Positions 3,413 to 7,029 of a stretch of DNA of 64,000 nt are shown here, piece by piece. Under the pieces are notes generated by a model, which worked only from the letters and a program-made list of their open reading frames with translations, did no database searches and was not told the DNA's origin. The stretch comes from a plasmid. Both the position numbers and the translations under genes were made by a program. Where the stretch lies: the NCBI RefSeq assembly GCF_053078305.1, contig NZ_CP166875.1. One strand, given 5' to 3'. The first letter of the stretch is position 1. Every line of letters begins with the position of its first letter.

Positions 3413-3766
3413 ATGAAAGTAATTAGCATGAAATTTATTTTTATTTTAACGATTATTGCTCTTGCTGCTGTTTTTTTCTGGCCTGAAGATAAAGGTCTGG
3501 CATGCTATCAGGTCAGCGATGAACAGGCCAGAACGTTTGTAAAAAATGATTACCTGCAAAGAATGAAACGCTGGGACAACGATGTACAACTTCTTGGTAC
3601 AGAAATCCCGAAAATTACATGGGAAAAGATTGAGAGAAGTTTAACAGATGTTGAAGATGAAAAAACACTTCTTGTCCCATTTAAAGCTGAAGGCCCGGAG
3701 GGTAAGAGAATGTATTATGGCATGTACCATTGTGAGGAGGAATATGTTGAATATGCGAATGACTAA
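3413..3766 (+). CDS. cmi: Colicin M immunity protein (117 aa)
   Basis: Starts MKVISMKFIFILTIIALAAVFFWPEDKGL (N-terminal membrane anchor); convergent with and directly downstream of cma, as in pColBM plasmids; low GC. Confidence 0.85.
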   Translation: MKVISMKFIFILTIIALAAVFFWPEDKGLACYQVSDEQARTFVKNDYLQRMKRWDNDVQLLGTEIPKITWEKIERSLTDVEDEKTLLVPFKAEGPEGKRMYYGMYHCEEEYVEYAND

Positions 3767-3815
3767 TACACTGCTATAAAGGCTGCATAAAAAGGCCGGA
3801 ACCCCGGCCCTTATA

Positions 3816-4631
3816 TTATCGCTTACCACTTTCTTTAATGTGAATTTCACCAGGAAGCAGTATCTGGTACTCTTTACCAGAAAACATCGCCCCGAGCCTT
3901 GTGAGCGACTCTCCGATAATGCCACGGTGAGTGCTGGCGTTAAAATCGTATTTATCATCATATGAACGAACAACGCCATTGTAAGTCCAGGAGCCATTGG
4001 CAGAGATAGTTAAAGTACCTTCTGTTTTCAGTGTGATATTACCAAGATATGCACCGGTAATAACATTATAATCACCAGTGGCATGTGTGAACTTTGTAGA
4101 AACAGGGAATGTACCTACTACACCAGATTTTATAATGTCTTTTATCTGATTAATTTTCATAGGGGAAATTTTAAGACCAATGTTGGCGATATTAACGCTC
4201 CTTTCAGCGCCATTACCCCATAAATAGTGAGCAAGCGCCACAATTGGTGTAGTGACATTACCGCTCATTTGTTTCATATTCATTGAGCGATAGTCATATT
4301 GACTTGGCGCTGGTTTTGCGAAGTGGTAAGCGTCATAAACGCTTATTCCAGGGTGAAGAACCAGATTTCGGTCGGCGTTACAGAAGTAACCAATATTTGT
4401 CGATATAATCTGCAATGTGAGAGGGTTGCTGGCCCCATGTTTTTTGATGTAATCCTCAAGTTGAGTTAAAGCCTGAAGACACATGTTTGGACTCTGGAAA
4501 AAACTATAAACAACCTGGACTAAAAGAGGGCCAGCACCAGGCACATGTGGTGCTGAAAGAGAAAATGCACCATTGCCATAACTTGGTAAGTTAGTTGATG
4601 GTGATGGTGCATGAACAGTTAAGGTTTCCAT
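3816..4631 (-). CDS. cma: Colicin M (271 aa), TonB-box ETLTV at N-terminus
   Basis: Translation from internal Met: METLTVHAPSPSTNLPSYGNGAFSLSAPHVPGAGPLL...KESGKR, recognised as colicin M; 271 aa. Confidence 0.93.
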   Translation of the reverse strand: METLTVHAPSPSTNLPSYGNGAFSLSAPHVPGAGPLLVQVVYSFFQSPNMCLQALTQLEDYIKKHGASNPLTLQIISTNIGYFCNADRNLVLHPGISVYDAYHFAKPAPSQYDYRSMNMKQMSGNVTTPIVALAHYLWGNGAERSVNIANIGLKISPMKINQIKDIIKSGVVGTFPVSTKFTHATGDYNVITGAYLGNITLKTEGTLTISANGSWTYNGVVRSYDDKYDFNASTHRGIIGESLTRLGAMFSGKEYQILLPGEIHIKESGKR

Positions 4632-4874
4632 ACATAACTCCTTATAAGTTAACAAGATAACAGAGTTCGCCGCTGGCTAACGCCTCCGCCGGCGAACAAA
4701 CCCCATGAGAGAGGCTCCCCATAACATTGTTTGCCTGATATGCCGTTAAAAATGGTAGGGCAGCTCCTGAACTACCATATATAAGATATATATCTGTACA
4801 CCCCATTAAATACTGGAAATATATTGAGAACTCTGATATATAATCTATATATAAAAATACAAAAAGGTATATAT

Positions 4875-5402
4875 ATGACCAGCAATAAAGATAAGAACAA
4901 GAAAGCAAACGAAATATTATATGCATTTTCCATAATCGGGATTATTCCATTAATGGCTATATTAATACTTCGAATAAATAATCCATATTCTCAAGTGCTG
5001 TGCTACTTATATAATAAGGTGGCATTTCTCCCTTCTATTACATCATTGTATGATCCCGTCATGACAACACTTATGTCAAACTACAACAAGACAGCACCAG
5101 TTATGGGTATTCTCGTTTTTCTTTGCACATATAAGACAAGAGAAATCATAAAGCCAGTAACAAGAAAACTTGTTGTGCAATCCTGTTTCTGGGGGCCCGT
5201 TTTTTATGCCATTCTGATTTATATCACACTGTTCTATAATCTGGAACTAACAACAGCAGGTGGTTTTTTTAAATTATTATCTCATAATGTCATCACTCTG
5301 TTTATTTTATATTGCTCCATTTACTTTACTGTTTTAACCATGACATATGCGATTTTACTGATGCCATTGCTTGTCATTAAATATTTTAAAGGGAGGCAGT
5401 AA
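4875..5402 (+). CDS. cbi: Colicin B immunity protein (175 aa, polytopic inner-membrane protein)
   Basis: Starts MTSNKDKNKKANEILYAFSIIGIIPLMAILIL; hydrophobic; located between cba and cma in opposite orientation, as in pColBM. Confidence 0.88.
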   Translation: MTSNKDKNKKANEILYAFSIIGIIPLMAILILRINNPYSQVLCYLYNKVAFLPSITSLYDPVMTTLMSNYNKTAPVMGILVFLCTYKTREIIKPVTRKLVVQSCFWGPVFYAILIYITLFYNLELTTAGGFFKLLSHNVITLFILYCSIYFTVLTMTYAILLMPLLVIKYFKGRQ

Positions 5403-5419
5403 CACTGCCTTCCTTTTAA

Positions 5420-6955
5420 TTATTTTATGATCTTGTGATTCAACTCATCAACAAATTTATCATCGATAAATGCACCAATAGCACCTGCAATAACTACGCC
5501 AACAAAACCAACAACTGTGGCCGAAAGACCAAAGGCTATAAGGGCCGAGCCTAATGTGAAAGAAAACAAACTAAGAGCTACAGCAGATGCCATCCCACTG
5601 ATAACCCAGGACTCGACTTCCAGCATTAATGGCCCCCAGTTACCAGTCTGGTAACCCTCAATACTCTTCTCCCTGATGTTGTTTGCCTTTATTGCATAAT
5701 CTGCTGCTTTGAACGTCTTACCCAACGCAGCAAATTTATTCCCCATATCCTCAGCATTAAATGCTTTCCACGCATTCACAATGGCTTCTTTGTCCGTTGC
5801 ATTTATTTTAAGGCTGGGGTTAGCCATTAACTTATTAATGGAAGACATTGCATCATCATAACTACGAATCGTTTTTCCCTGAAAATTATTTATATTCTCT
5901 GCAATTTCACGGGAAAGCGCCTTGTATTTATCTCCAAGATATTCCCCGACTTTGTCACCGACACTAATGATGACCTCGCTGGTTTTTGTCAGGACCGTCT
6001 TCTCATCATTTTCTTGTTCTTTCTTGACTCTGAAGTCATCCTTTGCGTTATTTTCGGCTTCCTGGCGCTGGCTTAAACTATTACTGTCCAGAATCTCCAC
6101 GGCTGAAATATATAGCGGAGAAACTCCACTGCCTTCAGGAAAACGGACAATGACATCATGATTATTACTGGACATCGTATAACCAGCCTCAACATAATTC
6201 CCTGTCTCAGAAATAACGCCATCTTCCTGGATTTCGGGATTAGACCGAACTGGAGTATTCATCTGACCCACACTTAATACCAGGTCCGGTAGATTTGGTG
6301 ATACAGGGGCACTGTAAACATCTTTAATATTGGTTCCCGGACGACTCCGGTCCGGAACTGGAACGGCATCCACTACTGGCACTGTCATCGGAATACCTCC
6401 GATAATAGCCATATATTGTGTACCATTCTGCATAAGGTCCGTCAGACGATATTTTACCGGTACATTATTACCCGCTGCTGGTAACTGGCTGGCAGGGATA
6501 TCCGTTACCTGCTCCAGTTGCTGTGTAACCATAAGACGAATAATTTTTTGCTCATTTCCGGAAGCAGGCTCCAGACGGGCAAAAGAAACAGCAGCCGGGC
6601 GAGACGGTTCTGGCAAACCACCACGTAAACCATTTTCAAGAACTGTTCGTGCAGCGGAAACTTTCTCGTTTCCCCAGGGGCTATGCACACTGACAGACCA
6701 TCCCGACCAGTCTCCCTCTTCAAGTTCCTTATCAAGAATAATCCGGCGAATAATTCCAGGAAAAAGAACACTTTGTACAAGTGCGATACCTTGTGGGCTG
6801 TAATCCCCCCATCCCGGAGGCATGGATGGAGCGAGACCTGATGAGCCTCCGGGTTTCACATCACCGCCCGGAATTCGTCCTGTTGACGGCCACACAACCA
6901 TTGTGTCCCCGTAATCAATACCTTCTGTCGGTACACTACCTTCATTATCACTCAT
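5420..6955 (-). CDS. cba: Colicin B (511 aa), pore-forming colicin with TonB box DTMVV
   Basis: Translation from internal Met MSDNEGSVPTEGIDYGDTMVVWP...; C-terminal hydrophobic hairpin (ASAVALSLFSFTLGSALIAFGLSATVVGFVGVVIAG) typical of pore-forming colicins. Confidence 0.93.
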   Translation of the reverse strand: MSDNEGSVPTEGIDYGDTMVVWPSTGRIPGGDVKPGGSSGLAPSMPPGWGDYSPQGIALVQSVLFPGIIRRIILDKELEEGDWSGWSVSVHSPWGNEKVSAARTVLENGLRGGLPEPSRPAAVSFARLEPASGNEQKIIRLMVTQQLEQVTDIPASQLPAAGNNVPVKYRLTDLMQNGTQYMAIIGGIPMTVPVVDAVPVPDRSRPGTNIKDVYSAPVSPNLPDLVLSVGQMNTPVRSNPEIQEDGVISETGNYVEAGYTMSSNNHDVIVRFPEGSGVSPLYISAVEILDSNSLSQRQEAENNAKDDFRVKKEQENDEKTVLTKTSEVIISVGDKVGEYLGDKYKALSREIAENINNFQGKTIRSYDDAMSSINKLMANPSLKINATDKEAIVNAWKAFNAEDMGNKFAALGKTFKAADYAIKANNIREKSIEGYQTGNWGPLMLEVESWVISGMASAVALSLFSFTLGSALIAFGLSATVVGFVGVVIAGAIGAFIDDKFVDELNHKIIK

Positions 6956-6997
6956 AGAAAACATCTTTGACTTTAAAAACAATCAATTAAAATTAAA

Positions 6998-7029
6998 TAC
7001 TGTACATATAACCACTGGTTTTATGTACA
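6998..7029 (-). promoter_or_regulatory. Putative overlapping LexA (SOS) boxes in the colicin B promoter
   Basis: Sequence (cba coding orientation) CTGTACATAAAACCAGTGGTTATATGTACAG contains two CTGT-N8-ACAG-like motifs about 40 bp upstream of the cba start. Confidence 0.55.

Follow-up and report, generated by a model that had tools for sequence, protein, structure and literature searches.

The window, a 64 kb stretch of plasmid DNA, carries at 3413-7030 four genes that the initial annotation described as a pColBM-type colicin B/colicin M island. The locus raises two questions: whether this cluster is complete, and how its two toxin genes are controlled. Sequencing and study of the colicin BM cluster go back to the 1980s, and automatic annotation places it in hundreds of plasmids. 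The region is very probably an intact cluster of this type on an F-like conjugative plasmid, and this high confidence covers the genes jointly with the SOS and read-through mechanism proposed for them. The island is thus already known; it is intact, and it is ordinary apart from a rare lineage at the cba ribosome-binding site. Its features are as follows.

3278..3305, no strand assigned: hairpin between the integrase stop (3243) and the cmi promoter region (terminator scan)
3413..3766, plus strand: cmi, colicin M immunity protein, 117 aa, YebF-like fold (PDB 4AEQ, E=4e-63; PF13995)
3794..3809, no strand assigned: GC-rich hairpin GGCCGG-N4-CCGGCC in the cmi/cma gap (terminator scan and fold)
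3816..4631, minus strand: cma, colicin M, 271 aa, lipid II-degrading bacteriocin (PDB 2XMX; PF14859, 512 bits)
4632..4874, no strand assigned: divergent cma/cbi spacer, presumably holding the cbi promoter
4875..5402, plus strand: cbi, colicin B immunity protein, 175 aa (PF03857, 211 bits)
5388..5416, no strand assigned: 13-bp hairpin overlapping the cbi stop (terminator scan and fold)
5420..6955, minus strand: cba, colicin B, 511 aa (PDB 1RH1; PF03515 and PF01024)
6962..6965, minus strand: cba Shine-Dalgarno (SD) sequence, GAGG changed to GATG at 6963, 8 nt before the cba ATG (comparison with other records)
7000..7030, minus strand: two LexA (SOS) boxes sharing one base, CTGTACATAAAACCAG (7030-7015) and GTGGTTATATGTACAG (7015-7000)
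7036..7064, minus strand: putative cba promoter with -35 TTGACA (7064-7059), a 17-nt spacer, and -10 TAATTT (7041-7036) (read from the sequence)

Identity and integrity of the cluster

The four genes are full length and lie in the order cmi, cma, cbi, cba, with cmi/cma convergent, cma/cbi divergent, and cbi/cba convergent, as the initial annotation had them. The intergenic gaps are 49 nt (cmi/cma), 243 nt (cma/cbi), and 17 nt (cbi/cba). Alignment, which had been proposed as the check on this assignment, revealed no frameshift or premature stop in any of the four genes, and gene lengths equal those of the PGAP genes of NZ_CP129254.1. The cognate immunity genes cbi and cmi are each located directly 3' of their own toxin gene on the opposite strand, and other ColBM records examined are annotated with the identical cmi-cma-cbi-cba arrangement. 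Opposite-strand immunity genes with their own promoters are described for ColBM clusters (PMC2994835, PMC8469651, PMC6723558). NCBIfam returned no equivalog match for Cma, Cbi, or Cba, and identities were settled by Pfam and PDB; an Rfam search placed no RNA family inside the island.

Colicin M enters cells by FhuA/TonB-dependent import and then cleaves lipid II. Cma is identical to crystallised colicin M (PDB 2XMX) at 271/271 residues (100%), while Cmi differs from the crystallised immunity protein (4AEQ) by four substitutions and keeps both Cys residues. This exact Cmi allele occurs on at least 1000 contigs in an exact-protein index, and the same protein, WP_033885663.1, is annotated as cmi in NZ_CP129254.1. 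Diversifying selection or recombination in cmi was considered and rejected, as the differences from five other records are few and scattered and the allele is common.

Colicin B is imported by a FepA/TonB-dependent route and kills by pore formation. Cba comprises an N-terminal FepA/TonB-dependent translocation and receptor region (Cloacin-type) and a C-terminal pore-forming domain; it matches PDB 1RH1 at 510/511 positions, with L466F as the sole change, and the exact protein is present on at least 1000 contigs. Its partner Cbi carries the rare allele Y43C (G at 5002, a position that differs from all 5 comparators), which the same index holds on only 2 contigs.

The F-like backbone named in the initial annotation is confirmed by the leading region, the FinP/traJ 5'UTR, sok, and tra genes through traI. 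A Tn3-family remnant occupies window positions 1-393.

A lysis gene had been reported absent, and a tblastn search and a lipobox scan of the window likewise found none. Four manually entered lysis-protein probes, searched against the full 64 kb, reached a best E-value of 0.057 in a stretch broken by stops, and the lipobox scan yielded only antisense chance ORFs. The best tblastn match (3430-3350, minus strand) occupies the expected lysis-gene spot; it was rejected as a lysis-gene relic on account of its stops and its low-complexity, K/N-rich translation. A nearby ORF with a 'LIAC' lipobox was dismissed as well, being merely antisense to the cmi signal region. The literature likewise describes ColBM clusters without a lysis gene (PMC2994835, PMC8469651, PMC6723558). 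Colicin release would therefore proceed by another route.

Predicted SOS control and the expression of cma

The two LexA boxes lie a few bases downstream of the putative cba -10 element. In a matrix scan of the whole 64 kb they are the top two scores, 16.9 and 12.7, followed by 11.6 for the next best site; these absolute values, which come from a matrix of manually entered boxes, are approximate. A LexA-box pair with 15-nt spacing arose in 0/200 Markov simulations, and the cba promoter and its boxes are conserved in 9 records. Shared SOS boxes upstream of cba are reported for ColBM clusters (PMC2994835, PMC8469651, PMC6723558). The cba -10 is weak, matching at 3/6 positions, which is why the promoter is missing from a consensus scan.

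The view that LexA boxes stand only upstream of cba holds: within the cma-cbi spacer the highest-scoring site reaches 10.98, less than any of the training boxes. This site (4813-4828, CTGGAAATATATTGAG), in which GAG replaces CAG, is unconvincing as a LexA site for cma or cbi, as is a CTG-N10-CAG match within the cbi gene (5241-5256, score 10.2). The CTG-N10-CAG pattern alone is no guide, since it occurs 49 times in the window.

By inference and from the literature, LexA dimers bound to the two overlapping boxes downstream of the cba -10 would repress transcription, and SOS induction would clear LexA and permit leftward transcription through cba. What would follow depends on the hairpin at 5388-5416, which differs between strands. 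Read in the cbi direction (plus strand), the stem has a folding energy of -20.2 kcal/mol and leads into a U-rich tail, and is predicted to terminate cbi. For the cba transcript (minus strand) the energy is -16.8 kcal/mol, the stem contains an A.C mismatch, and AAAAUAUU stands in place of a U-tract; termination in this direction is predicted to be poor. No minus-strand terminator is predicted from 5388 to 4632. The first strong one comes after cma: the 3794-3809 hairpin, at -19.1 kcal/mol on the minus strand and followed by TTTTTAT, is predicted to be a strong intrinsic terminator for cma and serves cmi too.

Because a U-tract is missing in the cba direction, a fraction of cba transcripts would run on antisense through cbi into cma. 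There cma would be translated from its own strong Shine-Dalgarno sequence, TAAGGAG (anti-SD duplex -8.8 kcal/mol), and transcripts would stop at the GC-rich terminator 3809-3794. The immunity genes cbi and cmi would be transcribed from the opposite strand by their own promoters, giving constitutive immunity. This asymmetry of terminators, together with the SOS layout, fits the published view of cma read-through from the cba promoter (Pcba) as an argument from architecture; the source itself words that read-through as 'presumed' (PMC2994835).

The same paper offers a reason to consider an alternative in which cma relies chiefly on a LexA-independent promoter of its own within the cma/cbi spacer, with negligible read-through and separate regulation of the two colicins. 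Upstream of cma it found no regulatory motif and no consensus promoter, yet a cma-gfp fusion carrying only that upstream region gave uniform, weak, LexA-independent expression (PMC2994835). Moreover, PLSDB holds cma in 584 records versus at most 190 with the cba 5' end and promoter. On many plasmids, then, cma is found in the absence of Pcba, which speaks against a strict need for that promoter; the minus-strand hairpin 3' of cba is also stable. However, the minus strand of 4632-4874 contains neither a consensus promoter nor a LexA box, both in the present scans and in PMC2994835; in the cba direction no U-tract follows the hairpin; and the layout of colicin gene, opposite-strand immunity gene, and downstream same-strand gene mirrors that of pore-former operons. 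A mainly independent cma promoter is thus improbable. Read-through from Pcba is preferred as the principal route, and some independent cma transcription may occur alongside it, given the reported expression from the cma upstream region. The record counts bear on an old question, namely how cma is expressed once the presumed promoter is lost.

Island edges and the rare cba Shine-Dalgarno allele

The initial annotation took a sharp drop in GC content as the mark of a horizontally acquired island. On the left the drop is indeed sharp, from 0.589 to 0.290 at 3243/3244, and the 3278-3305 hairpin, which is terminator-like on the minus strand (a stem followed by TTTTATAG), marks this edge. The right side has no such edge. 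GC is 0.403 across the island (3244-7064) and 0.399 across the right flank (7065-9450), compared with 0.562 in the left backbone and about 0.56-0.57 on both sides of the whole block, which leaves the right limit of the island unmarked by GC. The low-GC block overruns the island by about 2.4 kb, through orf170 and parMR, and ends near 9450. When flanks 2500-3300 and 7070-7870 were joined into one query, none of the 5000 best-scoring matches was a plasmid in which the two adjoin. Among the matches listed, comparison thus leaves the island boundaries undefinable, and GC supports a foreign origin only loosely.

The feature that sets this cluster apart is the change of GAGG to GATG in the cba Shine-Dalgarno sequence, where the 7 other records compared have GAGG. 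With GATG, the anti-SD duplex weakens to -0.9 kcal/mol from the -6.5 kcal/mol of GAGG. The same change introduces an in-frame ATG 9 nt before the normal cba start, and this new ATG likewise lacks an SD sequence. The fold of the 5' UTR is barely altered (-8.2 versus -8.6 kcal/mol). None of 190 plasmid and 170 RefSeq E. coli records was identical over 6933-6993, although the allele is shared with one independent assembly, GCA_026420185.1. It belongs to a rare lineage with three linked SNPs, at 3348 (upstream of cmi), 5002 (Cbi Y43C), and 6963, which are private to it within the comparison set. From the duplex energies, we infer that GATG lowers colicin B translation and leaves SOS-driven transcription unchanged. 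The AU-rich cba leader could still allow initiation.

Two other accounts of the locus draw on these data. One holds that there is no discrete acquired island and that the colicin genes belong to a larger, long-resident low-GC block, 3244-9450, which includes orf170 and parMR. The nearly equal GC of island and right flank favours it, as do the want of a record joining both flanks without the island among the matches listed, and the presence of orf170 (WP_001027529.1) after cba in every annotated ColBM record examined. It is nevertheless unlikely: the cluster also resides on IncI-gamma/K1 plasmids and therefore moves between backbones, and NZ_CP045714.1 has cmi-cma without cbi-cba-orf170-parMR, which points to modular exchange.

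The other account, a little more plausible and still doubtful, is that the island is present but decaying, with GATG largely silencing colicin B so that the strain is effectively a colicin M producer that keeps colicin B immunity. The weakened duplex, the upstream ATG lacking an SD sequence, the link to Cbi Y43C, and the inheritance of an otherwise absent allele in a second assembly are consistent with decay, and most cma plasmids have lost part of cba (of the PLSDB records, 584 have cma, 139 cover at least 80% of the pore domain, and 128 contain the whole island). Against it, cba has an uninterrupted ORF that encodes a common protein allele, AU-rich unstructured leaders can support SD-independent initiation, the 5' UTR fold is nearly unchanged, and two assemblies are too few to assess selection. 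A milder version is put forward tentatively, as a proposal with the odds against it: a rare inherited ColBM lineage in which the SD mutation attenuates colicin B translation, with the SOS promoter and cma transcription intact, as a point-mutation intermediate in the known course towards loss of colicin B activity, perhaps coupled to the linked Cbi Y43C change. If GATG does lower colicin B output, the frequent loss of colicin B can begin with regulatory point mutations, besides truncations. The reading retained for the locus as a whole is the intact pColBM-type cluster. Its discovery value is small, and the outcome is that an accessory module of an F-like plasmid has been correctly identified and is both intact and ordinary.

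Comparison with known colicin systems

In PLSDB, 128 plasmid records cover at least 80% of 3200-7300, and 118 match at 99% identity or more. The closest record is p_STEC1585_2 (E. coli, NZ_CP129254.1; pColBM-Cl139-type group), with 99.95% identity over window 1644-9740. Like pColBM, it shares with the window the four genes in the same order and orientations, the double SOS box 5' of cba, and the lack of a lysis gene. The flanks also agree, with a ResD-like tyrosine recombinase at one end and orf170-parMR at the other, as does the IncF backbone. Four SNPs in about 8.1 kb separate the window from NZ_CP129254.1, and in the set of records compared three of them occur only in the window's lineage. 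Outside this stretch the plasmid has a different mosaic structure, with a tra region closest to NZ_CP045714.1.

That plasmid, pFHI_NMBU_11_02, is one of the 'colicin M only' derivatives, which also include ColV/ColBM virulence plasmids and in which cba is lost or truncated. It resembles the window in its cmi and cma alleles and integrase flank (together 99.6% over window 395-4652) and in its tra backbone (99.9%). Homology stops 21 nt upstream of the cma ATG, where colicin V genes follow. Colicin-M-only plasmids lack cbi, cba, and the SOS promoter, whereas the window keeps all of these intact.

Reportedly, the downstream lysis gene of pore-former colicin operons is expressed by read-through. 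The operons of colicins A, E1, N, and K resemble the window in their SOS promoter with two overlapping LexA boxes, in the opposite-strand immunity gene directly after the activity gene, and in a downstream same-strand gene, here cma, that would be reached by read-through past a leaky terminator. Unlike these operons, the window has cma with its own opposite-strand immunity gene in the position of the lysis gene.

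Gene content of the colicin B and M island

The pColBM-type island is composed of four full-length genes in the ORF listing:

3413-3766, + strand: cmi, immunity gene for colicin M, 117 aa
3816-4631, - strand: cma, colicin M gene, 271 aa
4875-5402, + strand: cbi, immunity gene for colicin B, 175 aa
5420-6955, - strand: cba, colicin B gene, 511 aa

The cmi and cma genes are convergent with a gap of 49 nt, cma and cbi are divergent (243 nt), and cbi and cba are convergent (17 nt). The span initially annotated, 3413-7029, starts at the cmi ATG and reaches approximately to the far end of the distal LexA box (7030). 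Cma and the crystallised colicin M of PDB 2XMX agree at 271/271 residues, and Cba matches colicin B (PDB 1RH1) at 510/511, with L466F as the sole difference. Cmi carries four substitutions relative to the crystallised immunity protein 4AEQ and keeps both cysteines. Pfam assigns Colicin_M, Colicin_im, Cloacin plus Colicin pore domain, and YebF across the four proteins, while no NCBIfam equivalog model matches Cma, Cbi, or Cba. Coordinates, strands, Pfam families, and PDB matches bear out the gene order and orientations of the initial annotation, and the full-length ORFs and alignment to the E. coli plasmid p_STEC1585_2 (NZ_CP129254.1) reveal no frameshift in the island.

The annotated absence of a lysis gene also holds. 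A tblastn search of the whole window with probes for four lysis proteins returned nothing better than E=0.057, and lipobox-like ORFs were antisense artefacts only. The E=0.057 match (3430-3350, - strand) lies at the expected lysis-gene position and shows stop codons and low-complexity sequence on translation. ColBM clusters are published as lacking a lysis gene (PMC8469651, PMC6723558).

SOS control and read-through into cma

The putative cba promoter was read from the sequence, and LexA boxes were scored with a matrix of classical E. coli SOS boxes, whose absolute scores are approximate:

7064-7059, - strand: cba -35 element, TTGACA, followed by a 17-nt spacer
7041-7036, - strand: cba -10 element, TAATTT
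7030-7015, - strand: LexA box CTGTACATAAAACCAG, score 16.9
7015-7000, - strand: LexA box GTGGTTATATGTACAG, score 12.7
5388-5416, both strands: 13-bp hairpin overlapping the cbi stop codon
3809-3794, - strand: GGCCGG-N4-CCGGCC-TTTTTAT, the first good minus-strand terminator, directly after cma

The two LexA boxes share one base, lie 45 nt upstream of the cba ATG, and are the best two sites in the 64 kb (third-best 11.6). In simulated 64-kb sequences, a single site that strong occurred in 9%, and a 15-nt-spaced pair in 0 of 200 simulations. Nine records, drawn from E. coli, E. albertii, and Salmonella, keep the promoter and both boxes. By itself, CTG-N10-CAG is uninformative, with 49 matches in the window. 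The best site in the cma/cbi spacer, CTGGAAATATATTGAG at 4813-4828, scores 10.98, under all training boxes, and has GAG for CAG. It lies 47-62 nt upstream of the cbi ATG, about where the -35 region of a cbi promoter would be, and is probably a chance motif in AT-rich DNA. These scores support LexA boxes upstream of cba only, in agreement with Kamensek et al. 2010, who did not find a regulatory motif upstream of cma (PMC2994835).

Expression of cma by read-through from the cba promoter is presumed from architecture and literature. As cbi RNA (+ strand), the hairpin at 5388-5416 is predicted at -20.2 kcal/mol with a U-rich tail; the cba RNA (- strand) version contains an A.C mismatch, is predicted at -16.8 kcal/mol, and has AAAAUAUU after it. 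The hairpin is therefore predicted to end cbi transcription properly and to be leaky toward cba transcription, and terminator prediction on the minus strand found no other ahead of cma. The cma gene has its own strong Shine-Dalgarno (SD) sequence, TAAGGAG (anti-SD duplex at -8.8 kcal/mol). In pore-former colicin operons, as reportedly described by Cascales et al. in 2007, a lysis gene past an opposite-strand immunity gene is expressed via read-through; the ColBM layout is parallel, with cma in place of the lysis gene. Control of both colicins by the shared SOS boxes ahead of cba "seems" or "is presumed" to be the case in one paper (PMC2994835) and is given as fact in a review (PMC8469651). Two observations oppose strict dependence of cma on the cba promoter: the cma upstream region alone gave weak uniform expression (Kamensek et al.; PMC2994835), and cma occurs in 584 PLSDB plasmid records versus at most 190 for the cba 5' end (139 for the pore domain at coverage of at least 80%).

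Linked alleles and the cba Shine-Dalgarno sequence

In an alignment with five other records, three bases set the window apart:

3348: 65 nt upstream of cmi
5002: Cbi Y43C
6963: cba SD, mRNA strand, AAAGAGGUUUUCUAUG to AAAGAUGUUUUCUAUG (GAGG to GATG)

A 61-mer around 6963 has a 100% match in 0 of 190 plasmid (PLSDB) and 0 of 170 complete RefSeq E. coli records containing this region, the best having one mismatch, and all seven sampled records read GAGG. The exact Cbi allele occurs in only two contigs in a 15-billion-protein index, which holds at least 1000 contigs for each of the Cmi, Cma, and Cba alleles. The second Cbi contig, JAPMMH010000054.1 of draft assembly GCA_026420185.1, has all three SNPs although its left flank shares only 93.9% identity with the window, so the allele is real and inherited rather than a sequencing error. 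On the sequences compared, the linked bases define a rare island lineage.

The GATG allele would be expected to reduce colicin B translation, as predicted anti-SD pairing weakens from -6.5 to -0.9 kcal/mol. The same SNP creates an in-frame AUG 9 nt upstream of the cba start that likewise lacks an SD, and the leader fold is essentially the same. Initiation may still be possible from the AU-rich leader. BM plasmids tend to lose colicin B activity, and reduced translation, if true, fits that tendency, here through a point mutation rather than truncation.

Island borders, plasmid backbone, and relatives

The GC drop annotated as marking the island is real, at 0.403 (3244-7064) versus 0.562 in the left backbone and 0.568 in 9451-25000, and is abrupt on the left, where GC falls from 0.589 in the integrase gene to 0.290 right after its stop codon at 3243. 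It does not delimit the island on the right, since 7065-9450 (the 170-aa ORF and parR/parM-type partition genes) is equally low (0.399), so GC marks a 6.2-kb low-GC block rather than the colicin island itself. GC reaches 0.48 in the N-terminal part of cba. A joined-flank query found no plasmid with adjacent flanks among the best 5000 matches, and no mobile-element ends were identified.

The 170-aa ORF (7396-7908, WP_001027529.1) comes next after cba in all annotated ColBM records examined, has no Pfam or NCBIfam match, has a similarly low GC (0.407), and may be a member of the same accessory block. Left of the island, conserved hypothetical genes of 196, 85, and 137 aa (602-1449, 2046-2459) adjoin a ResD-like tyrosine recombinase gene (2461-3243); the 137-aa ORF stops 1 nt short of the integrase ATG and matches no Pfam or NCBIfam family. 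The left end (1-393) holds a C-terminal fragment of a Tn3-family transposase (ORF 96-359) where NZ_CP129254.1 has a colicin E1-family immunity gene, and ColBM-plasmid homology starts only at about 394.

The rest of the window confirms the annotated F-like backbone, matching IncF plasmids through a leading region with ParB, methylase, and antirestriction genes and tra genes through traI; Rfam identifies traJ 5'UTR, FinP, sok, AS-traG, and AS-traI. The leading region contains three direct copies of a ~550-nt repeat (13737-14286, 17070-17620, 22713-23263; 95-98% identical), each with the same LexA-like 16-mer, CAGGGTAAATGAACAG. We take these to be, probably, the repeated single-strand-initiation or Frpo-type elements of F-like leading regions.

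At the DNA level, 2189 PLSDB records match 3200-7300; 128 cover at least 80% of this query in one place, and the best match is at least 99% identical in 118. Among the full-length matches listed, the annotation reads cmi, cma, cbi, cba. The cluster also occurs on IncI-type plasmids and in partial form, and is thus mobile in a modular sense. The nearest relative of the tra region, pFHI_NMBU_11_02 (NZ_CP045714.1; 99.4-99.9% identity), carries, in its region 15317-17068, cmi-cma without cbi or cba, followed by a cytochrome b562 gene and a colicin V cluster. Its homology stops at window position 4652, which leaves just 21 nt ahead of the cma ATG and deprives this cma copy of the SOS promoter and native upstream spacer. 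The colicin region is instead closest to p_STEC1585_2 (99.95% identity over 1644-9740), which makes the plasmid a mosaic. The gene cluster is confirmed and its initial interpretation supported, the GC argument only partly: the colicin B/M island is known already, and its context is ordinary.
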